Shown: one piece after another, positions 543 to 36,374 of the stretch
How the letters are laid out: every line of letters starts with the position of its first letter
How positions within the stretch are numbered: position 1 is the stretch's first letter
DNA from: Candidatus Zixiibacteriota bacterium
Lineage (GTDB): Bacteria > Zixibacteria > MSB-5A5 > GN15 > FEB-12
DNA: 39,145 nt
Direction of reading: 5' to 3'
Assembly (NCBI GenBank): GCA_049324195.1
Contig: JBMOKZ010000410.1
Span: 1 to 39,145 of the forward strand
Notes under the pieces: model-generated
The model's input: the letters and a program-made list of their open reading frames with translations, nothing else
Told to the model about the DNA's origin: nothing
Databases searched by the model: none
Made by a program: the position numbers and the translations under genes

Positions 543-1892
543 TCAGTTCTGAGACAGATTATATTCTTTTATCTTGGCACGCAGGGTATTTCGATGGATT
601 CCGAGAGTCTCCGCGGTTTGACCGATATTCCAGTCCAGGCGGTCCAGACAGAATTTGATGTGGTTTTTTTCGATTTCACTGAGAAGTTTCAATTCCCCTC
701 CGACCGGAGCCGCTCCGGCACTGGCCAGACCGCTCAAGTCCCGGCGGGTGATATACGACGAAGAGGTTAACACGATAGCCCGCTCGATAATGTTTTCCAG
801 TTCCCTGACATTGCCGGGCCAGATGTACGAAGTCAACATCGCAGCGGCTTCGTTGTCGATACCCGTAACCGGCTTTCCGATTTTCTTGGCGTATTTTTCA
901 ACGAATTTCCGGGCCAGCAGTAAAATGTCTCCAGTTCGTTCGGCTAGCGGCGGCAGGTGTACTTTGATGACATTCAGCCGGTAAAACAGGTCCTCCCGGA
1001 ATTTCCCGTCCTTAATCAGCTGTTCCAGGTCGCGGTTGGTGGCGGCGATTATGCGAATATCAAGCGCGATTTCACTGACCGAACCCAGTCGCTCGATTTT
1101 TCTTTCCTCAAGCACGCGCAGGAGCTTGACCTGCATCGTCAGCGGCATCTCGCCGATTTCATCTAGAAAAAGCGTCCCACCCTCGGCCAGCTCGAATCGT
1201 CCCTGTTTGGCTTTCTCAGCTCCGGTGAAAGCACCTTTTTCATAACCGAACAGCTCTGATTCCAGCAGATTTTCCGGAAAGGCGGCGCAGTTGATAGCCA
1301 CCAGTCGTTTTTCCGCCCGAGAGGAATTGGCATGAATCGCCCTGGCAACCAGTTCCTTGCCGGTGCCCGAAGGTCCCGTGATTAACACCGTCGCGTCCCT
1401 GGGCGCCACCAGTGAAATCATTTTCTTTATTTCCCTGATAGCCGGAGAATCGCCGATGATTTCCGACGAGGGAAAGAATTCATCCAGTCGTCTGCTCATA
1501 ACCTGATTGTCAATCACCAGCCGGTTGGCGGCGGCGGCCTTTTCCAGTTTCAATAGCAGTTCATCGAGGTCCTCGACCGGTTTCGTCAAATAATCGTAAG
1601 CGCCCGCTCTCATCGCGCTCACGGCTGATTCCACCGAACCGAAAGCCGTCAAGACAATCACCTGGATAAACGGATTTATTTCTCTCAACCGGCTCAACAG
1701 ATCCAGACCGTTCATGCCCGGCATTTTCATGTCGACCAGGGCGATCGGCGAGAACAACTGCCGATAAATAGCCAGGGCTTCCTCAGCGCTGCCGGCGGCG
1801 GTCACCTGAAAATTCTTTTTAGTCAGGTATCCGGCCAGAAGCTCCCGCTGACCCGGTTCGTCGTCAACTATCAAAAGTTTGATGTCTTTCAT
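543..1892 (-). CDS. Sigma54-dependent two-component response regulator (NtrC/AtoC/ZraR family): REC-AAA+-Fis HTH
   Basis: LIVDDE and LVDMKMP receiver motifs; GPSGTGKE Walker A; [15 protein letters not shown]; LFLDEIGE; [10 protein letters not shown]; C-terminal [15 protein letters not shown]. Confidence 0.97.
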
Positions 1893-5740: not shown

Positions 5741-6991
5741 TTATTTGTCAAACTCTACGCGGTTGAACTCATCCCATTCCACCAGAATATCATCGCCGTC
5801 GTCCGCCGTGATGAAAATGCCCTTGTTGTCTTCATCGATATCGTTGGATTCTCTCAATGAGAAAGTTCGGCCGTCCCACAGCGTCACCTCAGCACCACGA
5901 TACGATTGTTTCTGAATTTGCTTGATGTTTCCGAATTCGATATTGAAATCTATATCCCGGCTGTTGCCGTCGAGAATCTCCCAGGAATATTCCTCGTCGT
6001 TGTCCCAGCGAATCAGACCCTTATAGGAATCGCCGTCTTCCGTATAAACCGTTCCTTTCAGGGGATGCCCGCCGTCAAACCGGTCATAGCCGATTTTATT
6101 CGGCGCTTTGTCGAAATCCAGCCTATCGAAATCGTCCCACTCCACCTGGACATCGCCGAGATTGGGATCGGAAATGACGATCCCGCGGTTGTCGTCGTCG
6201 ACATCGTTGGTGCCGCGCAAAATCATCTCATCGCCGCTTTTCAATATCACGCTGGCACCGCTGGAGCTGTAGCGTTCGATAGCCTGAATCTTGTCAAATT
6301 TAACTTTTCTCTTGCGGTTGTCATCGTTGCCGTCGAGCACGTCATCTTCAAAGAGTTCATCGATATCCCAGCAAACAAAACCGGAGAATTTCTCACCGCG
6401 CCGGGTCGTGAGCGTACCATAAAGACGTTCCCCGAAAACCGACGGATCCGTATCCGGAGCGGACATGAACTCGATACTCTCGATATCGTCCCAGACCAGT
6501 TCCATCTCTCCCTCGTCTTTATCCTCGATGACAATCTCCCGGATGCTGGTGCCGATATCAGTCGAGTTGTTTTCCAGTTCCACTTCCTCGCCCGATTTCA
6601 ATATCAAAAGCACCGCGTCGTCATCTACCATTTCCATCTGCTTGATATGACCAAATCTGATGCCCGACTGGGCGCGGTCGGAATAGAAAATGTTGTCCTC
6701 GTCGGAATCGATAATCTGCATACCGAACAGTTTGATGGATTTGTGTCTTGAGCTATAATTCTTTCGCGATTCGCGGTCCATCTCACGTAAATTATTTTTG
6801 GATAATTCTTTATCACCGTTGAGGATATCCACCCAGCAACCTTCGTTCTTATCCCACCGAATCATTCCTTCCAGAATATCACCGTCAACCGTGGTTATCT
6901 TGCCGTAAAGTCGGTCACTGTTGTCAGCTTTCGCGTCTGTCGTCGCCAACAATACCATCCCGAGTAGCAACACGATTTTATAAAATTTCAT
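5741..6991 (-). CDS. Exported acidic protein of unknown function with three internal repeats of about 110-150 aa
   Basis: GGAGGAG RBS and a signal peptide (AKA). Repeats start LYGKITTVDGDILEGMIRWD, LYGTLTTRRGEKFSGFVCWD and LKGTVYTEDGDSYKGLIRWD, and each ends in a VxWD(D/E)xxxxxF motif. Confidence 0.85.
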   Translation of the reverse strand: MKFYKIVLLLGMVLLATTDAKADNSDRLYGKITTVDGDILEGMIRWDKNEGCWVDILNGDKELSKNNLREMDRESRKNYSSRHKSIKLFGMQIIDSDEDNIFYSDRAQSGIRFGHIKQMEMVDDDAVLLILKSGEEVELENNSTDIGTSIREIVIEDKDEGEMELVWDDIESIEFMSAPDTDPSVFGERLYGTLTTRRGEKFSGFVCWDIDELFEDDVLDGNDDNRKRKVKFDKIQAIERYSSSGASVILKSGDEMILRGTNDVDDDNRGIVISDPNLGDVQVEWDDFDRLDFDKAPNKIGYDRFDGGHPLKGTVYTEDGDSYKGLIRWDNDEEYSWEILDGNSRDIDFNIEFGNIKQIQKQSYRGAEVTLWDGRTFSLRESNDIDEDNKGIFITADDGDDILVEWDEFNRVEFDK

Positions 6992-22138: not shown

Positions 22139-22813
22139 TTATTCCATCCATCTCATGGTATTTATCATTCCGATCATTTCGTTGAAAATCGAATCGAAAT
22201 ATTGATATTCACAAATCATATAGAACAATACGATGGTGTTGCCGTTTTTGGTGGCCACAATGGCGCCGCCGTAGGAACCGTAAACGCGCTTACCGCCGGC
22301 GGCCGAAGCGCTGGTGGCGACTTCCTTCATGTATTTGGCCTGGCCGAGCCATTGCACCCCCTTCAGCTCGTTCTCGACCGTCCCCAGCGACACCGGTTTC
22401 CGTCCCTTGGGAATCAATTCCTGTTCGGAAAGAATTTCGAATTGTTTTAAAATCTCTTTTTTCTGGTCGGTTTTGTAAGTTTCGCTCACCAGAGAATCGA
22501 TGAAAGTCAAAGTGGGCATGCTCGAAGTATCGGCGAAAACGACTATGCGCGGCACCTGAGTATAATCCGGAGCATCGGCATAGTCCATCGGAATATCGTA
22601 TTTCTTTCGAACACAAACAACCCGGTCGTTATCTTTTTCCTTGTTGATATTCGAGGACCATTCATCATTTATTTGGAACTGGAAATTATAGGCAGCATCC
22701 GTATAGACCCCGTCTTGATCAACTTCGCCGGCCATTTTAATCTTCCGCCGGGCATCCGCAACGTCAGGAATAATAAGGATTAAAGCTGTCAAAATAATTA
22801 TTAGTTTCTTCAT
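22139..22813 (-). CDS. Exported hypothetical protein, possibly PsbP/DcrB-like fold
   Basis: AGGAGG RBS before MKKLII (22813); signal peptide (ADA); YTDAAYNFQFQINDEW near the N-terminus and a terminal helix-strand FDSIFNEMIGMINTMRW. Confidence 0.75.
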   Translation of the reverse strand: MKKLIIILTALILIIPDVADARRKIKMAGEVDQDGVYTDAAYNFQFQINDEWSSNINKEKDNDRVVCVRKKYDIPMDYADAPDYTQVPRIVVFADTSSMPTLTFIDSLVSETYKTDQKKEILKQFEILSEQELIPKGRKPVSLGTVENELKGVQWLGQAKYMKEVATSASAAGGKRVYGSYGGAIVATKNGNTIVLFYMICEYQYFDSIFNEMIGMINTMRWME

Positions 22814-23018
22814 AATTCCTCCTAACAACCAGCATTACTTCTCTTTTATAGTTTTAACATTATACCCGTAATAATCAAGGATTAATTCATTTTTTTTCGT
22901 TAAATGATGGTCTTAAAACAACACCCTAACCAACCGAACAGACTTAATTACATAAACTTAGGTATAGAATAAACGAGAAAATTAAAGTAAAGCAACTAAA
23001 ATCAACCGGCTGGAGGAA

Positions 23019-23888
23019 TTACCGCTCGAAACCTATTTTCCTTTTGGTTTTCACGGCGATATAATCTGCGGCGTTGATGAAATCGAAATCGCTTAACAGA
23101 CGTTCCAGTTTGTACTTGAAAAGAGAAGTGGAACCGTAGGTCCGAAATTTCTGCACTGGTGTCAGGTTTTGGATTCGGGGCAAGTCCGGGTCGATTTCCC
23201 AGGGATGCAGATAAATCATTACCGGCTGCCCGGTCTTATTCAGTTTTCGAATCATCATCTTCATGTACCAGTAGGGAGAATGGCGCAGATAACCGCCGCC
23301 GGAGACAGGGATATTTTTGCCGAAAATACGGAGAGTCGAGGACGGAATCTCATACAGAAAATTACCGTTATCGAAAGACATCTTGAACATCTGGCGCGGC
23401 CCGGAAGGCATCCCGTACAGGTCATGCTTGATGGGGAAAATGGAACTGTCATAAGTAAAACCCATTTCCGCCAGAATCTCGAAAGCCCACGGGGTATCGG
23501 CGCTGAGAGACCAGCTCGGCGCCCGGTAGCCCATCGGCCGGATATCCACCGCCTTCACGATCGCCGCGACCGCCCGTTCGGTATCCTCGCGAAACTCTTC
23601 CGGTCCCATTTTGTCGACACGCACGTGCTGATAACTGTGACAGCCGATTTCATGGCCATAATCGCTGATTTCCCGGATTAGTTCGGGATAACGCTCGGCT
23701 ATCCAGCCAAGCACGAACCAGGTCGCGCGAACGTCTTTTTTGTGAAAAAGCTCCAGCAGACGATGACAGTTTTTTACCACGGTTGAGGGTAGCTGCGGCC
23801 ATTCGCCGACATCGTAACGCCCCGTCAAAATTTCGACCACGAACCATTCTTCGAGATCGACCGTCAAAATATTAAGGTTATTGCTCAT
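23019..23888 (-). CDS. Polysaccharide deacetylase (CE4; XrtA/PEP-CTERM-associated type with DUF3473)
   Basis: LTVDLEEWF, ATWFVLGWIAE, HEIGCHSYQH, GYRAPSWS, YDSSIFP, GGGYLR, YLHPWEIDP. Confidence 0.93.
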   Translation of the reverse strand: MSNNLNILTVDLEEWFVVEILTGRYDVGEWPQLPSTVVKNCHRLLELFHKKDVRATWFVLGWIAERYPELIREISDYGHEIGCHSYQHVRVDKMGPEEFREDTERAVAAIVKAVDIRPMGYRAPSWSLSADTPWAFEILAEMGFTYDSSIFPIKHDLYGMPSGPRQMFKMSFDNGNFLYEIPSSTLRIFGKNIPVSGGGYLRHSPYWYMKMMIRKLNKTGQPVMIYLHPWEIDPDLPRIQNLTPVQKFRTYGSTSLFKYKLERLLSDFDFINAADYIAVKTKRKIGFER

Positions 23889-23913
23889 GAGAGGTTTAAT
23901 AAAAAACGCGACT

Positions 23914-24720
23914 TTATTCCGGTTTCGGTGAAATCTTATCCTGAGTCGGATCGTTTCTTTTCTTTTTATCCGGCGTCGAATTCCCGTGAGGCGATTTCAT
24001 CCGGTCATCCTTACCTGACAGGCCGGGAGGTTTTTGCTCGTAATGATAACCGTAATACGAATAATCGTAATAATAAGGCAGACTTCCACTCATATTGTTC
24101 AGAACAACACCCAGCAGTTTGAAATGATTGGTCTTGAGAATATCGACCGCCCGCTTCACCACCTCGCGCTGGGTTTCTCCAGCCTTGATGACCAGGACCA
24201 CCCCGTCGACTTCGTTGGCCACGAACAGGGGGTCGGAGACGGGAATGATAGGGGCGGAATCGATGATTATCTGGTCGTAATAGAATTTCATTTCCTCGAT
24301 CAGGCGGCCGATCGCCGGGCCGTTGAAAACCTCGGCCGGATGCGCACTTATTTTCCCGGCGGTGATGACGTCGAGATTGTCCAGGCTGGTTTTCTTGATA
24401 ACACTCTTGGCCGCGGCTTCATCCGCTAGAATCTCGTGCAGACCCAGCTGACGCTCCAGTTTGAACAGCTGATGAATAACCGGACGCCGCAGGTCGCTGT
24501 CGATAATTACGGTCTTGAGCCCTTTCTTGGCCGCCGTAATCGCCAGCAGCGAGGTAATGGTGGACTTCCCCTCGGAAAGCATCGACGACGTAACCATGAC
24601 AGCCTTCATCTCGCCATCCTTTTCACTTTCCTGAAGGTTGTAAAGAAGCCTTCGGAACTCGGCGGCGAAAGCCGTTTCCAGACTGAAATAATCGATGATG
24701 GATATCTCGTTGTGCGTCAC
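23914..24720 (-). CDS. CpsD/CapB family bacterial tyrosine kinase (soluble, no transmembrane part)
   Basis: Walker A SSMLSEGKST, A' IIDSDLRRP, Walker B IIIDSAP, GVVLN, and a Tyr cluster YYYDYSYYGYHY. Confidence 0.95.
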   Translation of the reverse strand: MTHNEISIIDYFSLETAFAAEFRRLLYNLQESEKDGEMKAVMVTSSMLSEGKSTITSLLAITAAKKGLKTVIIDSDLRRPVIHQLFKLERQLGLHEILADEAAAKSVIKKTSLDNLDVITAGKISAHPAEVFNGPAIGRLIEEMKFYYDQIIIDSAPIIPVSDPLFVANEVDGVVLVIKAGETQREVVKRAVDILKTNHFKLLGVVLNNMSGSLPYYYDYSYYGYHYEQKPPGLSGKDDRMKSPHGNSTPDKKKRNDPTQDKISPKPE

Positions 24721-24725
24721 GGGGA

Positions 24726-25847
24726 CTACCCTTTCTCGGATATTTTTTTCAGAACCAGGTTCATATCTTCATAAATGCTCGAGGCATCTTCCAGAGCAAG
24801 TTTTATTTTGGAAAGGGAGGGATTGGACTCGTGGGTACTGCGGTATTCATCGACCCCTCTTTGCCAGTTCAAACGACCCTGTTCCAGATAACAGCGAGCC
24901 AGGTCGGAATGCAAATCCACATAGGTCGGATTTTTCTTCAGCTCTTCTTTCAGGTAGGCGATCCGTTCCGCCAACGCTTTTTCCGAAATCCATTCCGAAG
25001 TCAGGGCGAATTTCATATAAAATCCTGAAAACTGTTCGCGGCTGTTTTCTTTCTTGGTTTCCCTGATTTTCCTGAAGATATTGAGGGCTCGTTTCAGTTC
25101 CCGGTTATTGAGCGCTTTCAAACCCTCGTCGAACGCCTGCCCTTTGAAAGCGGTATATATCAGGGTCGCTTTATACAAATAGTCGGAAATTTTCGCCAGG
25201 TAGCCGGGCCATTGCTGCCGGTCCTGATTTTTGAGAGCCTGATAAATGTAAGCCAGTCCCAAATTGAAATAAGCGTCGCTGTAATACAGGTTGATATTCA
25301 CCGCCTGCTGAAACTGCTCCACGGCGTCATCGACCAGATCGTCGGCCAGCAGGGCCTCACCCAGATTGTTGCGGTAATCGGCAAAGCCGGGCTTCTGGTT
25401 CACGGCCTGCCGGGCGGCGGCGATAGCCGCTTCGATATTGCCCAGCGCCAGTTCCGTCAGACCGAGCTGATTAAGCGACTGATGGTGTGCCGGGTCGAGA
25501 GCCACGGTGTTTTCAAACAGCGTCCGCGCCTCCTGATAAAAGCCCTTAAAATAAAAAGCTGTTCCGAGATAATATGACATCCGGACATCGCCGGCGTTGA
25601 CAATCTTGCGATAAGCTTGCAGAAGATTTTCCAGTTCTTTTTTCTTATCCTCGTGGGTCATTTTGACCAGCGAGAGAATTTCATTGGGACTGATATCGGT
25701 CGGGTGGAGGTTATTGGACGTTTCGGTCGGCACGCCGTTGATAAACACCGTCGTGGCGACCGTTCCCAGATTGGAATCGTTTACGGTTTGAATCAGATAT
25801 TCCGTATCCTTTTCACAAAGCCTGCTGCTTAAACGATAAGTTTCCAT
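24726..25847 (-). CDS. Cytoplasmic TPR protein with an uncharacterised N-terminal domain of about 75 aa
   Basis: GAGGAGG RBS; no signal peptide or TM helix; TPRs YYLGTAFY, LNQLGLTEL, PGFADYRNNLGEAL, YSDAYFNLGLAY, PTYVDLHSDLARCY. Confidence 0.88.
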   Translation of the reverse strand: METYRLSSRLCEKDTEYLIQTVNDSNLGTVATTVFINGVPTETSNNLHPTDISPNEILSLVKMTHEDKKKELENLLQAYRKIVNAGDVRMSYYLGTAFYFKGFYQEARTLFENTVALDPAHHQSLNQLGLTELALGNIEAAIAAARQAVNQKPGFADYRNNLGEALLADDLVDDAVEQFQQAVNINLYYSDAYFNLGLAYIYQALKNQDRQQWPGYLAKISDYLYKATLIYTAFKGQAFDEGLKALNNRELKRALNIFRKIRETKKENSREQFSGFYMKFALTSEWISEKALAERIAYLKEELKKNPTYVDLHSDLARCYLEQGRLNWQRGVDEYRSTHESNPSLSKIKLALEDASSIYEDMNLVLKKISEKG

Positions 25848-25874
25848 TGTCCTCCTCTATCGCCCTTGAATTTA

Positions 25875-26876
25875 TCAGTCGCCGGCCACGGCGGTTTCGG
25901 TGGTTTCTTCCGGCTTGATAAGTTCATAGAGCACCACCGCCGAGGTTATCCCGCCGATTAACGTCACCCAGGTGGTGACCCCGCCGCTGAAGAAGCTCTG
26001 TCGTCTTTCCGGAATGACGAAGGTGTCCTCGTTCTTGAGAATATATCGGGCCGGGCGACCGGTCTCGGTATATTTCTCCAGATTGACCTGATACGATTGG
26101 GCGTAATTGCCGTCTTTGGTAAGGATTTTCACCTTTTTCAGGTTAGCCTCTGGGGTCGGACCTCCGGCCAGGGCGAGCACTTCCATGAAGTCGATATTTT
26201 CCTCGTATTCTACGGGGCCGGGTTGATTGACCGCTCCGACGACATAAATAACGTTTTTCTTTTCGATATTCCGGCTGATATCCCCCGCGGTCAGTCCGAA
26301 GAGCCGACGGGGAATCTCGATGGTATCCTGCCGGCGGATTTTGGGCAGGCTGCTGAGTCGTCCCGAAGCGATCGCCTCACTGACATTGACCACCTCGACC
26401 TGACCGGCCTGGTCCCCGCCCCGGATGACGGTCACCCGCGACAGGTCGGCAAACTCGGTCACGCCGCCGGATTCGTTTATAATCGACCACAGGTCCGGTA
26501 TTTCCTCGAACGTTCTTTTTCCCGAGGTTTGAATCTCGCCGATAATATAGACATAATTGTAATTGTAAGTCGTGACTCGCACCACTGCCTGAGAGATATT
26601 CTTGTTCAGTCGTGACATATTGCGGACGATATCGGTCTGAAGTTCCTCCGTGGTCTTGCCCTCGGCCTGAATCTGACCGATTATATCCAGCGTTATCATG
26701 CCGTCAAGACTGACCCGAACGGTCGTGTTAAGTTGGGGGTCCTGCCAGAAGTTGATTTCCAGGACATCTTCGGGTCCTATTTTATACCCCTGAGCCAGGG
26801 CGGAAACAACGATTATAAGGGATATCAGAAGACTTATCCGAATTGTCTTCCATGACAAAAGCTGATTATTTTTCAT
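25875..26876 (-). CDS. wza: Polysaccharide export protein (Wza/OPX family, Poly_export plus SLBB repeats)
   Basis: YKIGPEDVLEINFW, VSLDGMITLDIIGQI...GKT, VYIIGEI, IYVVGAVNQPG, LALAGG, and a C-terminal amphipathic helix. Confidence 0.92.
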   Translation of the reverse strand: MKNNQLLSWKTIRISLLISLIIVVSALAQGYKIGPEDVLEINFWQDPQLNTTVRVSLDGMITLDIIGQIQAEGKTTEELQTDIVRNMSRLNKNISQAVVRVTTYNYNYVYIIGEIQTSGKRTFEEIPDLWSIINESGGVTEFADLSRVTVIRGGDQAGQVEVVNVSEAIASGRLSSLPKIRRQDTIEIPRRLFGLTAGDISRNIEKKNVIYVVGAVNQPGPVEYEENIDFMEVLALAGGPTPEANLKKVKILTKDGNYAQSYQVNLEKYTETGRPARYILKNEDTFVIPERRQSFFSGGVTTWVTLIGGITSAVVLYELIKPEETTETAVAGD

Positions 26877-26999: not shown

Positions 27000-28646
27000 C
27001 TATTCAAGGACGGCTTCTTTTTCACCGAACAGCAAAAACTTGTTGCGGCCGGCTTCCTTGGCCTGTAAAAGGGCCATATCCGCCGAAAATATCAGCTTTT
27101 CGGCGTTATCGGCATGGTCCGGGAAGATGGCTCCGCCTTGCGAGATGGTGCAGTTTAAATCCCGGTCGAGTTCGTTGATACGGAATTTAGAGTTCGAGAT
27201 TTTCAACTGGAGACGGTTCATAAAACGCTTGCAGGTCGCCTGATCGGCCTCGGGCATGATTACACAGAACTCATCGCCGCCGTACCGGGCGATGATATCG
27301 ATAGCCCGGATGGAACTACGCAATATCTGACCCAGTCGCTGTAAGGTGGCGTCGCCTGCCAGATGACCGTAATTATCGTTGATGCTTTTGAGGTCATCCA
27401 TATCGAAAATAATCAAAGCCAGAGACCGCCGGTAACGTTTGGCACGGTCGATTTCCTCGTTGAGCCGCTTGCTGAAATACCGATGGTTAGCCAGACCCGT
27501 CAGGTTGTCGGTATAAGACATCTCCTCGATTTTTTCATAAGATTCAGCGTTCTCAATCAAATATCCGGCCTGGGGCTGCGCCAGGACCAGTCGTGCGACA
27601 GTCGCCTGCGGTTCTCCCCCGCCGCTCCACGCAAGCAGACCCGCCTGACGGGAATTGAGCGAGAACGGCATAACAAAACGAAGTCCGGCTTTTTTTAGAT
27701 TTTGATTCAGGATTTCTGCACCGCAGTCGTCAATGGCAAACTCATCGAGAGACCGGTACCCGTTCTGACCCAGTTTCGCCAAACAAGTTTTAAACGCTTC
27801 CGACGAGGGCGTTTCCAGACCGCCGGTCACCCCCTGCTTGATTATGTTAAGAATCTCCCGCTGACGACTCTCGTAAATGAAAGCTACCTGATTCAAATCA
27901 AGGTCCTTGGCCAGAGCGTCGATTATTTTGGGTACGATGGTTTCCGAGTTGCGGTGTTTGACCAGTTTTAAAATATTCATGCCCGTAAAGCCCGTAACTT
28001 CCCTGGTCACCCGCGGCGCCGGGCGGGTCTGCTGTATTTTCTGCTCAAGTTTGCTATAGCGGGATTCGTGCCATTTGATATGGTAGGCCGCCGAAAGGGA
28101 CTGCGCCAGAGCTGCCAAGAGGAGATTGAAAGAAGGGGTTCTGGTCTCGAAAGTGCTTCGGATAAAATAGACCCCGTAAAGGTTCTCTCGCCAGAAAATG
28201 GGAAAATAAACATCGAAACCCATGCTCTCCAGCCGCTCGTAAACCGTTCCAGGGATTTGTTCTTTAAGGCGTAGCAATTTCTGCGGCAAAAAAGTCGTCT
28301 TGAAAAGAACCGCCAGTTCATCGCTGAATTTAATACGGAAATCACTGCGATTGAAACGATTGATACCGTGATAATAATTCAGTTCGAGGAAATTCCTTTG
28401 TTTTCGTAAAAAGACAATTCGTTGGCATTCAAACACATTCTTCAACAGGTCGGAAACTTTCCCAGCCACCTGTAAAATTGTACCCTCAACGCTGTTGGTT
28501 TTCAGAAACTCGGAGAATTCCTCCAAATTCATGTTTTTAATTATTGATAGATATTTTTTCTCATGCCGGATTCTGAAGATCAATAAAAAGGCCAGGGCGA
28601 CAACCAGGACAACCAGGGTCGCCGTAATAAAATTTTGGTCAAGCAT
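27000..28646 (-). CDS. Membrane-anchored diguanylate cyclase with degenerate GAF-like region(s)
   Basis: One N-terminal TM helix; TDNLTGL, DMDDLKSINDNYGHLAGD, I-site RAID five residues before an intact GGDEF, ADMALLQAKEAGRN. Confidence 0.95.
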   Translation of the reverse strand: MLDQNFITATLVVLVVALAFLLIFRIRHEKKYLSIIKNMNLEEFSEFLKTNSVEGTILQVAGKVSDLLKNVFECQRIVFLRKQRNFLELNYYHGINRFNRSDFRIKFSDELAVLFKTTFLPQKLLRLKEQIPGTVYERLESMGFDVYFPIFWRENLYGVYFIRSTFETRTPSFNLLLAALAQSLSAAYHIKWHESRYSKLEQKIQQTRPAPRVTREVTGFTGMNILKLVKHRNSETIVPKIIDALAKDLDLNQVAFIYESRQREILNIIKQGVTGGLETPSSEAFKTCLAKLGQNGYRSLDEFAIDDCGAEILNQNLKKAGLRFVMPFSLNSRQAGLLAWSGGGEPQATVARLVLAQPQAGYLIENAESYEKIEEMSYTDNLTGLANHRYFSKRLNEEIDRAKRYRRSLALIIFDMDDLKSINDNYGHLAGDATLQRLGQILRSSIRAIDIIARYGGDEFCVIMPEADQATCKRFMNRLQLKISNSKFRINELDRDLNCTISQGGAIFPDHADNAEKLIFSADMALLQAKEAGRNKFLLFGEKEAVLE

Positions 28647-28720: not shown

Positions 28721-29404
28721 TTAAAATTGCTTACGGGCGTATTTAAAGCGGGATTTCTTTTTTAAAAGACCTTTTTTCTTAAGAATCGAAAAAATCCCCC
28801 ACCAGCCGATGTTTCTTTCGGCCCCATGATTATTGATTTCCTGCTTGATTTCAAAGATAGACATAAAGGGGTCCTGCCGCACCAGTCGCATTACCTGCAT
28901 TTCGATATTGCCGGAATCACCGTCGGTGAATTCCCCCTGACCGTCATATAACTGGTGAGTACCTCTCGAGGAAGACCCGATTTCGTTAACGACGGTGACG
29001 CGGGTTATTTTTTGGTCTTTTTTTTTTAACACTCCCGCTTCGACAAGCTGAGTTTCGAATTTGTCCCGAGCCGCATCCACGGAGTTATACGCCTGCAGAA
29101 CCTTGTCGAATTCCAGAAGTTCGTAAATCTCGTAGACGTTGGGAATCATATTCGCCAGCTTGATATCACCCCCGTTTAAGCGCAGGTCCTTGATATGCGA
29201 GATGAAAATTCCCCATCCGGCGGAAGAAATGTAATCCACCCCGGCCAGGTCGATGACGATATTATAGCGCTGCCGCTTGACCAGCGAATCGATGACTTCC
29301 TCGAGTTCACCAGCGGTCAGGGTATCTATAACACCGTCGATTCTAACCTCGGAAACGGTATTATTGATTCCGCATTCGGAAAGAGAAATGCTAATATTTT
29401 CCAT
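28721..29404 (-). CDS. STAS anti-sigma-factor antagonist with a C-terminal HTH-like extension
   Basis: GVIDTLTAGELE, IVIDLAGVDYISSAGWG (phospho-acceptor Ser motif), GGDIKLA. The tail VRQDPFMSIFEIKQEI...IGWWGIFSILKKKGL resembles an HTH. Confidence 0.9.
   Translation of the reverse strand: MENISISLSECGINNTVSEVRIDGVIDTLTAGELEEVIDSLVKRQRYNIVIDLAGVDYISSAGWGIFISHIKDLRLNGGDIKLANMIPNVYEIYELLEFDKVLQAYNSVDAARDKFETQLVEAGVLKKKDQKITRVTVVNEIGSSSRGTHQLYDGQGEFTDGDSGNIEMQVMRLVRQDPFMSIFEIKQEINNHGAERNIGWWGIFSILKKKGLLKKKSRFKYARKQF
29018..29027 (-). repeat. A10 homopolymer (coding strand) at the STAS/tail junction
   Basis: GTG TTA AAA AAA AAA GAC on the coding strand; T10 on the plus strand. Confidence 0.9.
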
Positions 29405-29474: not shown

Positions 29475-31529
29475 TTATTCGTCGGATTTTTTGACCGAGG
29501 AGTTCTCGATATTCTGGGTGTCGATGGTCTGGCTGATTTCCCGGGCCGTTTCGGTATCTTTTTCGGTCCCTGACAGAACCGACCGGGCCAGGATAAAAGT
29601 GATATCGTCGGTCTGTTTCATGAATCCGGCATAATTGTCGATTTCCTCAACAATCGCCCGGGACAAGTCGGATATCTTCTGGGGATACTGATGGCTCAAC
29701 TGGCCATGCATGAACTTGCCTAAAGGCTCCATCCCGTACTGGTTGCCCTCGCGGTCGGTGGCTTCAGTGATACCATCGGTGTACACAAAGAAAACGTCCC
29801 CTTCTTCGAGTTCCAGACTGACCTCCTCGAGACTTTCCTCGAAGGTCTGGACGAGCGTCACGGGAAACCCGAGCGGCATCCCGGTCGGGTTAATTTGGGA
29901 AATCTTGCCGGTCCGGTACCGGTACAACAGCATGGGGTTGTGCCCGGCCGAGACGAAATTCAATTTTCTATCCGAGGCATCGTATATCGCCAGCAGCACC
30001 GTAATAAACATTCCCGGCGGGATATTCTTTTCCATGTAATCGTTGACCAAAATCAGCGTTTCCTTAGCCGAGACGGCTTCTTCGGATTTGATGCGGATGA
30101 CCGTCCGAATCATGGACATCACCAGCGAGGCCGGGACCCCCTTTCCGGATACGTCGGCCACCACCAGACAGTACCGGTTCGAGCTGATTTCGAAAATATC
30201 ATAAAGGTCACCGCCGACCATCGAGGCAGCGCGGTAAAAAGTATCGACCTCAAGACCGGGGAGATGCGGCAGTTTGCGGGGCAGCAGGGTCTTTTGAATC
30301 TGCGAGGCGACCTCGATTTCCTTGGCCATTTTCTCCCGGGCGACGACATTTTTACGGTCGCGACTCAGCCGGGTCATCATATCGTTGAGAGCGCGGGAAA
30401 TCTCGAAAAACTCGTCGGCGCCCTCGAGCGGCAGTTCCGTTTCAAGGTCGCCCGAGGTAAACTGCCTGACCCGGTGAGTTATCCGGACAATTGGTTTAAC
30501 GAAATAATTGGAAAGGATATATATACCCAATACTCCTACCAGCAACAGAATGCCGGTCAGCGCCAAAAACCGCATCCGGGCGTCGTTCAGCTTCTTGTAG
30601 ATGGGCGCCGAGGAATAGATGATGAAAGCTCTGCCCAGCATCCGTTCGCCCACTTTAATCGGCACAACCAGATAATTTTTCTGGCTTCCGTCAACGATAA
30701 AACGCTGAGTAACGTTGAGCATCTGAACATCGATATAGTTCGGCGGGATATACGGCTTGCGCAGGTTAAGGATATCCTCACTGTGAGCCAGGATAATACC
30801 GCTGGAATCGGTCAGGACAATCAACTGCAGAATCGGGTTGGAACGCAAATAGCTCTGAATCAATTCATCGAATTCTACATCGCTGCGGCTGTTGATGATA
30901 TACCCGGCAACCTGTTCGGCCATGGAAGCGGTCAGCGCCTTGACGGTGTCGTCGAGGTGGGCATAGACCTCTTTTTTGGTGCGGTCGTTGATATAATAAA
31001 AAGTTCCGCCGATTATCAGACAGACGATAAACATGGTCCAGAACGAGAATTTGACCCTCAGGGTAAACATCCGCCGGAGAATCGACGGGGAGTCGCCGGG
31101 GGCGCCGTGAATGCGTTTGATCATCCGCAATTCGTTAAAGCCGGCGGCCGATATATATTCCACCGAATTCATAATCCGTTGAATCATGTAAAAGCCCAGC
31201 CCGCCCTTGCGGCCCGACTCGACCAGCCGTTCCAGGTCAATTTTTCCCGAGCCGTCCGGCTGGAACGAACGTCCCGAGTCAATCAACGAAAAAGCGATCA
31301 TCTTTTTATAGATAACGATTCGGAGCCGCAGGGTGCCCTTCTCGTAGAGATAGGCGTGGCGGATAATGTTGGTCGCCCCTTCCTCGATGGCCAGAAGCAC
31401 CGCCGAGACATCCTTACGCGACATCCCTGCCGTGGTGCAGCTTTCCTTTACGATCTGACGGATATTATCGAGGTATTTTTCTTCGGCCAGAAACTCGGCA
31501 TCGATTTCTTTTATCGGGCGATGAAACAT
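29475..31529 (-). CDS. Bifunctional membrane sensor: RsbW-type Ser/Thr kinase, TM, Cache-like periplasmic domain, TM, HAMP, SpoIIE/PP2C phosphatase
   Basis: Kinase motifs EEGATNIIRHAY, IDSGRSF, GGLGFYMI. TM helices FWTMFIVCLIIGGTFYYI and FLALTGILLLVGVLGIYIL. HAMP KPIVRIT...GDL...DEFFEISRALNDM. PP2C motifs VGGDLYD, ADVSGKG, SAGHNP, YTDGITE, DDIT. Confidence 0.93.
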   Translation of the reverse strand: MFHRPIKEIDAEFLAEEKYLDNIRQIVKESCTTAGMSRKDVSAVLLAIEEGATNIIRHAYLYEKGTLRLRIVIYKKMIAFSLIDSGRSFQPDGSGKIDLERLVESGRKGGLGFYMIQRIMNSVEYISAAGFNELRMIKRIHGAPGDSPSILRRMFTLRVKFSFWTMFIVCLIIGGTFYYINDRTKKEVYAHLDDTVKALTASMAEQVAGYIINSRSDVEFDELIQSYLRSNPILQLIVLTDSSGIILAHSEDILNLRKPYIPPNYIDVQMLNVTQRFIVDGSQKNYLVVPIKVGERMLGRAFIIYSSAPIYKKLNDARMRFLALTGILLLVGVLGIYILSNYFVKPIVRITHRVRQFTSGDLETELPLEGADEFFEISRALNDMMTRLSRDRKNVVAREKMAKEIEVASQIQKTLLPRKLPHLPGLEVDTFYRAASMVGGDLYDIFEISSNRYCLVVADVSGKGVPASLVMSMIRTVIRIKSEEAVSAKETLILVNDYMEKNIPPGMFITVLLAIYDASDRKLNFVSAGHNPMLLYRYRTGKISQINPTGMPLGFPVTLVQTFEESLEEVSLELEEGDVFFVYTDGITEATDREGNQYGMEPLGKFMHGQLSHQYPQKISDLSRAIVEEIDNYAGFMKQTDDITFILARSVLSGTEKDTETAREISQTIDTQNIENSSVKKSDE

Positions 31530-31572: not shown

Positions 31573-33408
31573 TTATTTTTCGGTTTGACCACCGGGGTTC
31601 AAGCGCAGTTTGGCCTGCTCGATATTATGCAGCGTGTTGACATTACCCGGATAGACTTCGAGCACCTTCTCCCAGGCGTCAATCGCTTTCTGGTATTCCT
31701 TGTTACGCATATAGCGGATTCCCTCGAGATAGAGGTTCCAGATTTCCTTGTCTTGCTGGAGTTCCTCGAGGGTCGAGGCCTGGGTTTGCGCCTTTTCGAT
31801 CTTGTCGATATAATCCAGCGCCACCGGTTCGAGACTGTCGATTTCCAGCACCTGCTCAAACCGCTTGCGAGCGTCGTCATATTGCCCCTTTTTGAAAAGG
31901 GAGATACCCAGGTTAAGCTGCTGCGACAAATCCAGAGTGTTCAAAGCTCTTTCCCTGGCTGTCGAGGCGGCTTCGTTGTACGGGTCCAAATCGAGAATAC
32001 GGTTATAAGCTTCGATTGCCCCCATCATACGACCCTCCGTTTCCGCCGCCCGCGCCGCATCCCAGTTCAAGGCAATCTCTTTCGTCACGGTTTCGGTAAT
32101 CTCTTTTTCAAGGCTTACCGCCCGAACATCGTGCGGCTCGATTTCAAAAATAAGGTTCAGCATATCCAGGGCAGCGGCATAGTATTTCTTGCGGTAAAAA
32201 TCTTCGGCCTGATTGTAATACCGGTCGATAAACTGCTGATAGCCCTGGCTAGCCTGATTGATGCGCTCCTGCTGTTCCATCTCCACTTTCATGGCTTCTT
32301 CGATGGAAACGATCGTTTCCATTATTTCTTCGTTGCCCGGGTCGACCACCAGCGCCTGCTGGTAATAGACAAGGGCTGAATCGAGCTGGAATTGACGGAA
32401 GAAATAGTCGGCCTGGGTCTTGAGCCGCATGAATTCCCGCTGTTTTTCATCGATTTCGACCGGCGGCAGCGAGGTCGCTCCGATATCTTTTTGCGCCATG
32501 CGGTCGGCGGTCGAGGACCCGATAAAGAACGACAGCGAGAAGTTATGAATATCCTCGATAAAGTCCATGACCTTATAAGCATAGTCGAATTTCAGCCGGT
32601 GAAATCGCAAGCCGGCTCCAAAGGACAAATTGTCGCGGTCGTAACCTGTCCGCAGGTAATAGGCGTCGTAAAACGCCACCTGAATCCCGCCGTGCAATTT
32701 GAACGAACGCTGCTCGTACTTCTCGAAATCCAGCGAGGCGGTTACCGCCAGACGGTCGGATATTTTCAGGTCCTGATACGAGAGTCCGCCCATCAGCGAG
32801 CTCGGGACGGTTTCCTCGTAGGTGTTCAGCTTTATTTTGGCGGGGACAACATCCCGAGCCATCAAGCCCAGCGAAAGGTTTTTGTACAGCCGCATCCGTA
32901 CGGCGGCATCCAGTCCGAAACCGTAATCGGAATAATCATCGAGCGACTGGTTGACAATTTTGGCGTTGATGCCCAGCGCCAGGTTACGCCCCAGTTTCTG
33001 TCCGAAAGATATGAGAATCTGGGAATAAGTATAATCGAAAAGATACTGTTCTTCGAAATTAACGGTTTTCAGAATGTCATCGGTTCCGACCCGCATAAAG
33101 CCAAGCCCGATCCCATTTTTATCCGAGAAGGGATACACCCAGGAGGCATAATCGTAAATCGTTCCCTCAAAAAGAACGGTGTGCATAACCGACAGTTCCT
33201 GGAAATCGAGATAAGACAGACAGGCGGGATTGTAATAAACAGCCGAGGCGTCGGCGGCCAGCGAAGTATACCCGCCGCCCATTCCCAGTGCCACAGCGCC
33301 GGCGCCATGTGAAAAAACCGACTCCTGCCCGGCGTCATCAGCCGCCACCGAAACCGCGAGCAGCGCCCAAAAAACAAGCACCGGAATTATCAGTCGTCTT
33401 GTCGTCAT
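31573..33408 (-). CDS. PorV/PorQ (UPF0164)-like outer-membrane beta-barrel fused to a C-terminal TPR region
   Basis: Signal peptide; GAGAVALGMGGGYTSLAADASAVYYNPACL; last strands LRTGY...FGAGL...FDYAY...HNFSLSF; then about 300 aa of TPR/helical repeats (AYNRILDLDP, FEQVLEIDS, WEKVLEVYP). Confidence 0.85.
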   Translation of the reverse strand: MTTRRLIIPVLVFWALLAVSVAADDAGQESVFSHGAGAVALGMGGGYTSLAADASAVYYNPACLSYLDFQELSVMHTVLFEGTIYDYASWVYPFSDKNGIGLGFMRVGTDDILKTVNFEEQYLFDYTYSQILISFGQKLGRNLALGINAKIVNQSLDDYSDYGFGLDAAVRMRLYKNLSLGLMARDVVPAKIKLNTYEETVPSSLMGGLSYQDLKISDRLAVTASLDFEKYEQRSFKLHGGIQVAFYDAYYLRTGYDRDNLSFGAGLRFHRLKFDYAYKVMDFIEDIHNFSLSFFIGSSTADRMAQKDIGATSLPPVEIDEKQREFMRLKTQADYFFRQFQLDSALVYYQQALVVDPGNEEIMETIVSIEEAMKVEMEQQERINQASQGYQQFIDRYYNQAEDFYRKKYYAAALDMLNLIFEIEPHDVRAVSLEKEITETVTKEIALNWDAARAAETEGRMMGAIEAYNRILDLDPYNEAASTARERALNTLDLSQQLNLGISLFKKGQYDDARKRFEQVLEIDSLEPVALDYIDKIEKAQTQASTLEELQQDKEIWNLYLEGIRYMRNKEYQKAIDAWEKVLEVYPGNVNTLHNIEQAKLRLNPGGQTEK

Positions 33409-36374
33409 TTCATCACCGCCACTTTCAGCCGGGCTTCCTGGCCGGTCGCATGAATAGTAATCTGGGCGATATAAACCCCGTTATAAACCAAATCGCCATC
33501 GTTGTTGCGGCCGTCCCAGGTGATTTCGTTCAAATCATCAACCAAGCCCTCGCCCGCCGGGATATCGAGCGAGAAAACTTCCTCGCCGATCAACGTGAAA
33601 ATCCGGAACTCCACCCGGCTTTCCTGCTCGAGATAATAGCGGAAACTGGCCGGGGCATCGTACGGGTTGAAGGGATTGTTTTCGATTCTGAAAGACTGTT
33701 CCAGCGATTTGCCGGAAGTCACATAGAGCTCCGACAGCAGGGTCGAATCGCCGGTAGGCGAACTCACGGCGACATTGTCGCCGGCCATGATGGCGTCGAT
33801 AAACCGGGCGTTAACCACATACTTGTCAAGATTTACGGTGAAAGTTTCCGGTAAGGTTTCTACCAGCATGGCCTTGAAATAGATCGTCCGGGTCTGCGAA
33901 GCCGGTATTATAAAATCGGAGAAATAAAGGGTAATCTTGTTTTGTCCCGCGACAGCCGTAGTGACCTGTTCGTTGTCTTCGTAAAACCCGGAATTGCCCA
34001 CTTCCAGCACGGAACGCACCGCCAACGGCTGCCCCTGAGCATCGCTCAAAGTTACCGCGATATGTTCCAGAAGCATATCGGTCAAGGACGAGGTCCCGGT
34101 GTTGGTCAAGTCGAGATAAAACAGGTTCACCAGGTTACCCGCCGCAATCAGATGGTCGGATTTCTCGGGTCGTACGAACAATTCGGCGTCGAGAGAGGCA
34201 AGGGTAACCCCGATATCAAATGCCGTATCGCCGATTTCCGCCGGCAGGGACGTATTCAGCTCGGTCGGCTTCTGAATGATATCGAACGTGAAAAAGGTCA
34301 CGGTATCGATTTCCGGTCCGACCAACGTAAACCGAAGCGGCACGCCAACGACGATATTCCCCTCGAACGGATCCGGTATGCCCATCTCGACACCGCCGGT
34401 CGAAAAACGATACCGCCCGATAGTCGTCTCCGCTTGACCGTAATTGGTCAGATTGACCGTCAGGTAAACGGTATCCCCCGGTTCGATGATGCCGTCAGAC
34501 AAACCCTGGGAGTTATAGGACAAAAGAAGCAGCGCCGGTTCCTCGATAACGATCAGCTCGATATCGTCCAGCGGCTCGAGCTGGTTAAGATTATTGGAAA
34601 CGATTTCAACCTGTAAAACTTCGTTACTGTTGGTTTCCTCTGCTGCCGTTATATCATAAAGAATCTCGACCGTATCCAACGGCAGAATCTCGTCCACAAT
34701 CTGCTCGGAATTGAAAACGGAGGTACCGTTGCTCGTCAGGTTCAAAGTCATACCGGTTACCGGGTATTCGGACTGGTTGGCGATCCGGCAAAGCAGTTGA
34801 AACGCCTGACCGACATTGATCCGGGGGCGGTTCGGCATCAGGGCTCGGAGTTCCAGAATCTGCACGGTCGGACGCTCCAGCACCGTAACTTCCTGCCCGT
34901 TGAAATTGGTTTCATACTCGATATAATTGGCCGCCCCGGTTTGTCGGTAATGAATCGAGGTGGACATTTTCAGGCTGGCTCCGACCTGGTCGAGAGGAAT
35001 GAAGATCGGGTCGGTAACTACCGTGTTAACTCCCTCGTTTAGCATGTTGTCAGCGACCGACAGGTTAACGGTGGCGGAATAACCCTGTCCGCTGAGAGTG
35101 AAAACCGAAAGGTCAGGATCTATTTCCAAAGCCGGCACGCCGGTCAGAATCAAATCGAAACGGAAAGGTACATCGCTGCCCGCATTTATCTCCAGCGGTT
35201 CTAAAGAACCAGCCGCATAGGTGAGAGATGCCGGGGCGAGCAGTTGAATCGAGTCGGGATAGGCATTGTCCAGCGTAAAAATATTGCCGCCGGAAATAAG
35301 GTGATAATCCAGTTTTACCATGTACGGCCCCGGGGTCAGCCCGGCCAGGGTATCGATTTCGGCTGTCAGGCTGTCATAGCTGATAACACCGCCCGAAAAC
35401 GAGTGATACGACGGTGAACCGGTGTAAATGGTTGCCAATTCCGCGCCATTAATGCTGTCGCAAAGCTTGATGGTCAACGAAGTGCTGTCAATCTGACCGG
35501 GGAAATCCGTAGCGGCAACGTCAAAGGAGACTTCAAACGGTACGCCCTGATAAACCGTATCCGGCAAAAACGAGCCGGGGACGACATCGAATGAAGCCAG
35601 CGCGTAAACGGTTACGGGAATGTGATACTCAGTGAAAGCCTCAAGCAAAATCTCGTTTACCAAATATTCACTGGTCAACTCCAGTACCATGGTATCCTCG
35701 CCCGGGTTCAGATTGGGGGTTTCCAACTGAATAGGGAGAGTGTCGATAATACCGTTGGCCTGCGGCGCGTAAAAAATATATTTGATTGACCCGCCCCCGG
35801 ACCGGAAATAAGCTTTTATCGTAGGTTCACTGTTAGCCTCCCGGGTACCCCGGTTTTGGACCGTAACGTGAATGGTCGTCGGCAGGTCAGAATAAATCTG
35901 GCTTATGGGATTGCCTATGAAATCGAAGGCGTTCAGAATATCATAGCCGTTGAAGGAGACGATAACGACCGAAGAAGAAATCAGGCCGTCGGTGACATAA
36001 ATTTCGACGTTTCCGGTCGGCCCGAGATAGCGCACGCCGGCGGGACGGAGGTCGATGACCCCGCCGTTGAACAGAGCCGGGTCATCCAGCACTCCGGGAA
36101 CAATTTCGCCGATACTGGACACCAGCGAAAGTGGATGCGTGGAGAGGTCAAATTCGGTCAACTGGACACTGTTGCTGTCGAGCAAAATTATACGGGCCTC
36201 GGTGATAAATGTCTGCCCCACCACCTGGGTCGAGGAAATGGTCAAAACAATCTGAGCCAGGTCATCTTGCGCCTTCTGAACCGTCTCTCTTTCGGGTGCA
36301 ATGAAATCAACAGAGAATCCCGTAAAGGGAAGTAAAAAAAGAAAGGAAAATATAAAAAAACAGTATTTTCTCAC
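33405..36374 (-). CDS. Large acidic Ig-like secreted/surface protein with a FlgD/T9SS-like C-terminal domain
   Basis: GTG start and a signal peptide; beta-rich CARDB-like segments (VTVQNRG, IEPGDTVYLTVNLTNYG, LDLTNTG); C-terminal NNPFNP...RIFTLIGEEV...WDGRNNDGDLVYNGVY...KVAVMK. Overlaps the next gene by ATGA. Confidence 0.85.
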   Translation of the reverse strand: MRKYCFFIFSFLFLLPFTGFSVDFIAPERETVQKAQDDLAQIVLTISSTQVVGQTFITEARIILLDSNSVQLTEFDLSTHPLSLVSSIGEIVPGVLDDPALFNGGVIDLRPAGVRYLGPTGNVEIYVTDGLISSSVVIVSFNGYDILNAFDFIGNPISQIYSDLPTTIHVTVQNRGTREANSEPTIKAYFRSGGGSIKYIFYAPQANGIIDTLPIQLETPNLNPGEDTMVLELTSEYLVNEILLEAFTEYHIPVTVYALASFDVVPGSFLPDTVYQGVPFEVSFDVAATDFPGQIDSTSLTIKLCDSINGAELATIYTGSPSYHSFSGGVISYDSLTAEIDTLAGLTPGPYMVKLDYHLISGGNIFTLDNAYPDSIQLLAPASLTYAAGSLEPLEINAGSDVPFRFDLILTGVPALEIDPDLSVFTLSGQGYSATVNLSVADNMLNEGVNTVVTDPIFIPLDQVGASLKMSTSIHYRQTGAANYIEYETNFNGQEVTVLERPTVQILELRALMPNRPRINVGQAFQLLCRIANQSEYPVTGMTLNLTSNGTSVFNSEQIVDEILPLDTVEILYDITAAEETNSNEVLQVEIVSNNLNQLEPLDDIELIVIEEPALLLLSYNSQGLSDGIIEPGDTVYLTVNLTNYGQAETTIGRYRFSTGGVEMGIPDPFEGNIVVGVPLRFTLVGPEIDTVTFFTFDIIQKPTELNTSLPAEIGDTAFDIGVTLASLDAELFVRPEKSDHLIAAGNLVNLFYLDLTNTGTSSLTDMLLEHIAVTLSDAQGQPLAVRSVLEVGNSGFYEDNEQVTTAVAGQNKITLYFSDFIIPASQTRTIYFKAMLVETLPETFTVNLDKYVVNARFIDAIMAGDNVAVSSPTGDSTLLSELYVTSGKSLEQSFRIENNPFNPYDAPASFRYYLEQESRVEFRIFTLIGEEVFSLDIPAGEGLVDDLNEITWDGRNNDGDLVYNGVYIAQITIHATGQEARLKVAVMK

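Follow-up and report, generated by a model that had tools for sequence, protein, structure and literature searches.

The gene analysed here lies on the minus strand of a 39,145-nucleotide stretch of DNA from a Candidatus Zixiibacteriota bacterium (contig JBMOKZ010000410.1; the whole stretch is referred to below as the window). A single open reading frame (ORF) at 29475..31529, it encodes a 684 amino acid (aa) fusion protein comprising, in order, a kinase, a transmembrane helix (TM1), an sCache-like sensor, a second transmembrane helix (TM2), a HAMP domain and a PP2C phosphatase. An earlier note on this DNA had described a kinase and an opposing phosphatase fused around one two-helix sensor, and the ORF, the Pfam matches and the topology all bear this out. 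As judged from its sequence, the protein is apparently a single transmembrane chain in which both enzymes seem to be active and flank a periplasmic Cache-like sensor.

Domain organization of the fusion protein

The N-terminal domain (residues 14–138; 31116..31490; all coordinates given for this gene and its cluster refer to the minus strand) is a HATPase_c_2 Ser kinase of the RsbW/SpoIIAB and SiaB type, scoring 73.7 bits against a Pfam gathering cut-off of 27.4. It aligns with the solved Bacillus subtilis RsbW (PDB 6m36; expectation value, E, 3.6e-8), with agreement in the E/N/H N-box and the D-x-G and GGLG boxes. A variable linker (residues ∼139–157; 31059..31115), delimited by the alignment and by an AlphaFold2 model, leads into TM1 (residues ∼158–181; 30987..31058), which is a peak in the Kyte-Doolittle scan used for all transmembrane calls and is modeled as a helix. 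TM2 (residues ∼319–342; 30504..30575) is the strongest hydrophobic peak and coincides with the modeled helix 308–358; these are exactly two hydrophobic segments, and HAMP follows directly after the second. The HAMP domain (Pfam match at residues 339–389, 44.1 bits) and its output helix together cover residues ∼343–395 (30345..30503), corresponding to modeled helices 308–358 and 372–415. The C-terminal SpoIIE-family PP2C Ser phosphatase (residues ∼400–650; 29580..30332) is identified both by matches in the PDB and by a Pfam SpoIIE match at residues 450–649 (152.7 bits; cut-off 25). The Pfam scan gave no match to a REC (Response_reg) domain in the fusion. Relatives align from residue 1, and M1 is nearly invariant.

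Two transmembrane helices with HAMP immediately after TM2 place the kinase, HAMP and PP2C together in the cytoplasm and the Cache-like domain in the periplasm, so the cytoplasmic location previously assumed for the kinase stands. The segment ahead of TM1 carries four Lys/Arg and one Asp/Glu, and that following TM2 carries four and none. The sensor itself (residues ∼182–318; 30576..30986; Pfam and AlphaFold2) had been put forward as an extracytoplasmic Cache-like domain of ∼135 residues. Its size and position hold, with ∼137 residues, including the LIVLTDSSGIILAHS stretch, between the two helices, but the family assignment is borderline: sCache_3_2 scores 24.2 bits at residues 195–318 in the whole protein, under the cut-off of 28.4, and 28.6 bits when residues 180–320 are scanned alone. 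The same family reaches 44.6 bits in one relative (P0129).

The AlphaFold2 model, built from an alignment of 41 relatives, has a mean predicted local distance difference test (pLDDT) score of 84.6. It comprises a compact kinase, a helix (157–212) that runs through TM1 into the sensor, a sensor formed by a long helix and a β sheet (pLDDT ∼90), a helix (308–358) that spans TM2 into HAMP, and a second long helix (372–415) that enters the phosphatase.

The 41 relatives, which are 25–58% identical to the window protein, were aligned for counts of residues and spacings. Kinase residues E50, N54, D84 and G112 are invariant in all 41, as are PP2C residues D441, D444, D459, G464, D585, G586, D641 and D642; the HAMP proline P346 is likewise invariant. 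The PP2C domain was also aligned to Rv1364c, SpoIIE and a “putative serine phosphatase” (6k4e) from the PDB, and the Asp-containing motifs agree. The N, G1 and G2 boxes of the kinase and the full set of metal-binding Asp motifs reported in the earlier note are thus both confirmed. Fused opposing enzymes often lose one activity, and we therefore considered whether one of the two domains might be a degenerate pseudo-enzyme retained as a scaffold. No positive evidence for this was found. The invariance of every ATP-binding and metal-binding residue at such levels of divergence makes it highly implausible, and we reject it on these grounds.

Distribution and conserved gene order

The combination of HATPase_c_2, HAMP and SpoIIE is present in all of the best 120 clusters at 90% identity, whose named members are Zixibacteria/GN15 save for a few labeled “bacterium” or Deferrimicrobium. 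Among the best 150 representatives at 50% identity, 93 have an N-terminal kinase followed by at least one hydrophobic segment and then PP2C, and 80 of these 93 have exactly two such segments as counted with a crude threshold. The other representatives are 52 proteins without a kinase, two soluble kinase-PP2C fusions and three kinase-only fragments. Two hydrophobic segments precede PP2C in 27 of the 52 kinase-less proteins (27 of the 150 overall), a SiaA-like arrangement.

At the level of genomes, 172 of the 201 Zixibacteria genomes searched, the window’s phylum, have a full match (E ≤ 1e-77), and the remaining 29 have domain-level matches only (1e-31 to 1e-49); among the matches listed (150 places), 144 begin at query residues 1–7. 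The protein of locus L001, from the Calditrichota, is matched at E ≤ 1e-60 in 78 of 81 genomes of that phylum. The corresponding figure for the phylum of L002 is 48 of 81, with 40 of the matches starting from residues 1–15. A similar protein (P0148) is labeled Krumholzibacteriota, and an Atlas cluster of 311 members, mostly Eiseniibacteriota, contains SpoIIE in 100%, HATPase_c_2 in 90% and HAMP in 77% of cases. At least two candidate phyla have the architecture in nearly all of their genomes, and in a third it is frequent; the rarity implied by the earlier note has to be given up.

A wider search of genome contigs returned, as most of its apparent whole-query matches, adjacent separate RsbU/RsbV/RsbW genes or PP2C fusions with a C-terminal kinase; among the matches listed, the architecture with the kinase at the N terminus occurred only in L001, L002 and L003, plus the incomplete L004. 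Full-text literature searches, with subscription-journal papers and supplements outside their reach, found no description of this architecture, and the texts found to name HATPase_c_2, SpoIIE and HAMP together do so in domain lists only. The architecture, a rearrangement of known parts, is widespread and conserved and appears to be uncharacterized.

Many of the fusions are longer than that of the window, with 62 of the 80 two-segment proteins exceeding 750 aa. In seven long forms that were scanned, PP2C is followed by HTH_23/28/29, by three STAS domains or by TPR repeats, and fused STAS domains are present in five of the best 150 representatives. Giant chains of the form kinase-TM-TM-HAMP-PP2C-HTH with two or three STAS domains, found among P0148, P0158, P0174, P0193, P0196 and L002:5956-10215, combine the enzymes and their presumed substrates in one protein. 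Further long relatives, of up to 2253 aa, have TPR repeats at their end.

The genes around the fusion are also conserved. Directly upstream is a 611 aa protein (31573..33408) combining a PorV/PorQ-like β-barrel (PorV_fam, 95.5 bits against an NCBIfam cut-off of 90) with Pfam TPR repeats. Its start is overlapped by 4 bases by the gene for a 989 aa surface protein (33405..36374; ORF and Pfam) with a weak FlgD_ig-like C terminus. On the downstream side, the gene for a 227 aa STAS protein (28721..29404; Pfam STAS, 63.8 bits), the presumed substrate, begins after 70 bases, in agreement with the neighboring STAS protein already pointed out in the earlier note. It is followed by a 548 aa GGDEF diguanylate cyclase (27000..28646; Pfam GGDEF, 157.4 bits), the presumed output. 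Further Pfam matches at 23019..26876 correspond to a Wza-like Poly_export/SLBB protein, a TPR protein, a ParA-like ATPase and a DUF3473 polysaccharide deacetylase.

This order (surface protein, PorV/TPR protein, fusion, STAS, GGDEF, polysaccharide export) recurs across the Zixibacteria. It was scored in 20 wide loci, each from a different genome: the GGDEF gene is downstream of the fusion in all 20, the STAS gene lies between fusion and cyclase in 18 (the exceptions being L119 and L120), and a Wza homolog follows the cyclase in 18. Upstream, the PorV/TPR homolog is present in 19 of the 20, as well as in the Calditrichia loci L001 and L003, and the large surface-protein homolog is present in 18, as well as in L002 and L003. 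In a set of 30 narrow loci that includes the window, the start of a cyclase homolog is visible downstream in 26; of the four without it, L099 and L101 break off where their contig ends. The Calditrichia loci L001 and L003 keep the order from surface protein through PorV/TPR protein and fusion to a STAS protein with its helix-turn-helix (HTH)-like domain, and have DUF4159 and DUF4175 genes in place of the cyclase. The presence of the surface protein and PorV-like barrel-TPR protein ahead of the fusion in both Zixibacteria and Calditrichia hints at a link between the sensor and some apparatus of the outer membrane or cell surface.

One variation on this order concerns a ParA/BcsQ-like ATPase gene (AAA_31, 134.7 bits), which is inserted between fusion and STAS in L123 (L123:7738-8583) and in the same gap in L124–L130. 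The families with this gene are the Zixibacteria that carry a long-form fusion of ∼950 aa.

The STAS protein and the cyclase

The STAS protein consists of a STAS domain (residues 1–115), a variable, low-complexity linker and an HTH-like C-terminal domain (residues ∼161–225). Ser61 (codon 29222–29224) stands in the alignment at the phospho-acceptor Ser of TM1442 and SpoIIAA, where the 1tid sequence has Ala. None of 30 STAS relatives differs at S60 or S61, and Ser61 is the predicted phospho-acceptor of this protein.

The C-terminal domain (28724..28924) comprises ∼65 conserved residues, belongs to no Pfam family and is modeled confidently as four helices (pLDDT > 87). Foldseek found nothing in the PDB at E ≤ 0.001. 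The best hit of a wide VIA search was a putative nucleic-acid-binding protein (Z 7.5, root-mean-square deviation 2.8 over 67 residues), followed by winged-helix DNA binders at Z 5.4–6.6, although values of Z < 8 may reflect merely a common arrangement. An Atlas structure search gave template-modeling scores of 0.78–0.83 over 66–70 residues to HTH_28/23/29 clusters, and scores in the same range to the part of long-form fusion proteins that holds their HTH. The domain thus resembles the HTH_23/28 fused behind PP2C in the long-form relatives, and in several genomes it is encoded as a separate small ORF (L111:7206-7457, L112:7535-7798 and others).

Between the STAS and C-terminal domains the gene contains a run of ten A’s (29018..29027). 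We surveyed this position in 54 loci, of which 50 were scored after leaving out four without a STAS match, and found 9–10 A’s in 35 of the 50. With ten A’s, the C-terminal domain is in frame in 11 loci and the window, in the −1 frame in 15 loci (L084 and L111 being one and the same place) and in the +1 frame in one; with nine A’s, it is in the −1 frame in seven loci. Of the loci without a run, 13 (other Zixibacteria families and Calditrichia) have the domain in frame, and in two it was not found. This pattern of frames fits a slippage event that would yield a short and a long form of the STAS protein.

The cyclase has a hydrophobic segment at its N terminus, consistent with membrane anchoring, and 17 of 17 relatives share its GG(D/E)EF motif and R447-x-x-D450 without change. 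The N-terminal 335 residues (27552..28559) have no Pfam match even at E ≤ 5; their GAF-like character comes from a tandem-GAF appearance in Atlas feature and structure searches, which we treat as a lead only. A complex prediction for cyclase residues 30–548 with the STAS protein scored 0.00, a value that weighs neither for nor against binding.

These two candidate outputs can be ranked. The main output might be the HTH-like domain of the STAS protein, acting in transcription or docking, with the cyclase as a lineage-specific addition and cyclic di-GMP (c-di-GMP) a secondary matter. Such a scheme would account for the Calditrichia, which keep the fusion and STAS-HTH pair without a GGDEF neighbor, and it draws on a confidently modeled four-helix module whose nearest folds are winged-helix and HTH DNA binders. 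Against it, the fold matches are weak, with none from Foldseek and VIA scores in the range of common arrangements, the domain is out of the STAS frame (−1) in 22 of the 50 scored loci, and a GGDEF gene is adjacent in every wide Zixibacteria locus. We regard this scheme as unlikely, and favor c-di-GMP and polysaccharide as the output in the Zixibacteria.

Regulation of the two arms and relation to known switches

The closest parallel in domain order is SypE of Vibrio fischeri, which is reported to have its kinase at the N terminus and its PP2C at the C terminus, both acting on the STAS protein SypA (PMC3610818). By this published description, the two proteins share an N-terminal RsbW-like kinase of ∼140 aa with a conserved Asn (N52 in SypE, N54 here), a central regulatory module and a C-terminal PP2C in one chain, a STAS partner nearby and a setting in a polysaccharide (syp) locus. 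In contrast, SypE is described there as soluble, with a central REC domain fed by a phosphorelay, where the window protein has TM-sCache-TM-HAMP and an extracytoplasmic input.

In Pseudomonas aeruginosa, SiaA and SiaB set the phosphorylation of SiaC, which switches the cyclase SiaD and aggregation (PMC7278518). The SiaABCD system shares with the window a membrane HAMP-PP2C, an RsbW-like kinase, a small switch protein, an adjacent cyclase and a similar gene order, but SiaA and SiaB are separate proteins, whereas here the kinase is fused N-terminally. Moreover, the substrate here is a canonical Pfam STAS protein with an HTH-like domain, and the cyclase has a transmembrane segment and a GAF-like region. 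Scores against the equivalog families are correspondingly low: the fusion reaches 69.7 bits with the SiaA model (NF038263; cut-off 700), covering HAMP-PP2C only, and the cyclase 146.2 bits with the SiaD model (NF038266; cut-off 290), covering the GGDEF domain only.

In HsbR/HsbA/HsbD of P. aeruginosa, a protein that fuses PP2C and kinase is likewise reported to act on a canonical STAS protein, which binds a diguanylate cyclase (PMC5085249). HsbR is a soluble REC-PP2C-kinase protein with the kinase at the C terminus. The best solved-structure match of the PP2C domain is Rv1364c of Mycobacterium tuberculosis (PDB 3ke6; E 9.8e-14), likewise a multidomain partner-switch fusion, whose C-terminal part is weakly matched by the kinase region of the window protein. 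Unlike the latter, Rv1364c is soluble, has the phosphatase ahead of the kinase and lacks a membrane sensor or HAMP. The comparison with SypE, HsbR and SiaA/SiaB drawn in the earlier note was therefore apt.

Spacings in the alignment of 41 relatives differ markedly between the two arms. From N132 at the end of the kinase to L157 before TM1 there are 16–47 residues, in 15 different lengths; this linker is poorly conserved, basic and often contains Gly or Pro, and it is modeled as disordered (pLDDT < 50 at residues 143–148, against ∼90 for the domains). The distance across TM1, from L157 to D182, is 25 residues in 41 of 41 relatives. On the phosphatase side, 26 residues separate R320 in TM2 from P346 in HAMP, and 37 separate E404 from D441, the first metal-binding Asp, in every relative; the intervening distance from P346 to E404 is 56–65 residues, with a mode of 58 in 20 of the 41. 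Conformational relay and mechanical coupling normally need a helix of fixed register, and a length-variable tether is unfit for them. The fixed register from TM2 through HAMP to PP2C, together with the variable kinase tether, leads us to read the phosphatase as the signal-controlled arm. By alignment, model and analogy, the PP2C is probably the regulated arm and the kinase a tethered, probably constitutive antagonist. The existence of kinase-less homologs with two hydrophobic segments indicates that a sensor-phosphatase core is able to stand alone, and SiaB has been proposed to be a constitutive antagonist of SiaA (PMC7278518).

The earlier note had instead proposed a reciprocal one-component switch, in which one periplasmic signal acts on the kinase through TM1 and on the phosphatase through TM2 and HAMP, in opposite directions. 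Several features are in keeping with this: 93 of the best 150 representatives have the two enzymes on either side of a single sensor, always in this order, TM1 is a constant span within one helix that continues into the sensor, and a short, partly conserved basic motif lies just ahead of it. The central REC domain of SypE, which has the same order, is also described as biasing both activities and deciding which prevails (PMC3610818). However, the kinase-TM1 linker, variable in length, little conserved and modeled as disordered, is ill suited to such a route, and the fixed-register helix that mechanical coupling would normally need is found on the phosphatase side. We therefore find the coupling of signal to kinase through TM1 unsupported and consider the switch in that form unlikely; reciprocal control as such may still operate by another path, with docking or occlusion acting on the kinase.

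Considered as a whole, the best reading is a phospho-switch like SiaABCD built with the domain order of SypE, the central REC being swapped for TM-Cache-TM-HAMP. In this model, the protein would be a homodimeric inner-membrane sensor that determines whether Ser61 of the adjacent STAS protein is phosphorylated. Its RsbW-type kinase domain at the N terminus, on a flexible, length-variable tether and probably always on, would phosphorylate the STAS protein with ATP, and the C-terminal PP2C would strip the phosphate off again. A ligand on the periplasmic sCache-like domain would act through TM2, HAMP and the fixed-register helix on the regulatory helices of PP2C, such that net STAS phosphorylation would follow the outside signal. 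The STAS protein would in turn act on the neighboring cyclase, a membrane-bound protein with GAF-like and GGDEF parts, and its small HTH-like domain might additionally act on DNA or a partner; the end effect would be on c-di-GMP and the downstream polysaccharide-export genes. We give the complete model, with its homodimeric sensor, Ser61, signal-controlled PP2C arm and c-di-GMP/polysaccharide output, a probability of roughly 0.6. The action of both enzymes on this STAS protein, the identity of the regulated arm, the coupling of STAS to cyclase and the active phospho-state are parts that we infer.

Several points weigh against this model. It draws on sequence, structural models, gene order and analogy, and the predicted template-modeling score of the AlphaFold2 model is 0.47, a value at which the mutual placement of domains is unreliable. 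SypE, the closest in domain order, is reported to have both activities biased by its central domain, so a regulated kinase is possible by analogy. In the Calditrichia no GGDEF gene follows the fusion and STAS-HTH pair, and the cyclase is hence not a universal output. L119 and L120, both from one Zixibacteria family, have no STAS ORF of at least 70 aa between fusion and cyclase. The cyclase precedents, finally, use opposite phospho-states: SiaC acts on its cyclase in the unphosphorylated form (PMC7278518), and HsbA binds HsbD in the phosphorylated form (PMC5085249). The sign of the switch is therefore not fixed by precedent, and by analogy could be either. With regard to L119 and L120, the gap between fusion and cyclase is only ∼150–230 bases there, and this family may have the gene for the substrate at another site in the genome.

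The same components could also operate as a classical partner switch. Here, the RsbW-like domain would serve mainly as a membrane-tethered anti-factor. Its partner, which might be the membrane cyclase, an HTH domain or a sigma factor, would be held until the STAS protein, once dephosphorylated, displaces it, and the STAS protein itself would never touch the output. It is established that RsbW-type proteins are both kinases and binding antagonists, as in the RsbW-RsbV complex (6m36); the fusion and the cyclase are both membrane-anchored, and the long-form relatives hold an HTH domain of the same kind as that of the STAS protein. The invariant ATP-binding residues, however, favor catalysis, and both published cyclase precedents act via the STAS-like protein itself (PMC7278518; PMC5085249). 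In addition, a Pfam scan of 25 window proteins found no sigma-70-family domain, the only related protein being a sigma-54 activator (543..1892). A partner switch of this kind thus seems distinctly improbable beside the favored phospho-switch.

A more far-reaching proposal joins several of these elements. In it, the fusion would be the signaling core of an ancient envelope-sensing cassette of FCB-group candidate phyla, and its Cache domain would read the PorV-like/TPR protein and the surface cargo rather than a small molecule. HAMP would gate the phosphatase and, by docking, the kinase in opposite directions, and slippage at the A-run would give two STAS forms that split the signal between c-di-GMP (STAS alone) and an HTH output (STAS-HTH). 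We offer this as a speculative scheme that is improbable in its entirety.

Partner switches usually have their kinase and phosphatase as separate soluble proteins that take their input from other sensors; here both are in one transmembrane receptor. If the favored model is correct, an outside signal would be converted into the phosphorylation state of a STAS protein without an intermediary. Such a design approaches a minimal bidirectional receptor for Ser phosphorylation, comparable to a bifunctional histidine kinase, and offers a simple system in which to ask how HAMP controls PP2C and whether a tethered antagonist enzyme needs regulation. Because the same neighbors are kept across the Zixibacteria, the Calditrichota and at least one further candidate phylum, the protein is likely to have a leading part in regulating surface polysaccharide and biofilm behavior in abundant uncultured bacteria of sediments and biofilms.

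Across the genome, HATPase_c_2 scores above the cut-off four times, and STAS and SpoIIE are each matched eight times. Contigs C87, C138 and C358 hold three sets of the conventional kind, clusters in which a stand-alone kinase gene adjoins a STAS gene, so the fused module is one of several partner-switch sets in this genome, each with a STAS protein nearby. A sigma-factor partner switch of the RsbU/RsbV/RsbW-sigB type was tried as an explanation and rejected, there being no sigma-factor domain among the 25 window proteins scanned.

A promoter and terminator scan of the window found 11 terminator-like sites against 12.3 expected, none of them in the intergenic gaps of the cluster, which is uninformative. 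For two further ORFs, at 5741..6991 (minus strand, 416 aa) and 22139..22828 (minus strand, 229 aa), Pfam gave nothing at E ≤ 0.001. A 950 aa BACON-domain protein at 7104..9956 (minus strand) carries a type IX C-terminal sorting domain (Por_Secre_tail, 30.1 bits); together with the PorV-like gene, this points to an export route resembling the type IX secretion system in this genome.

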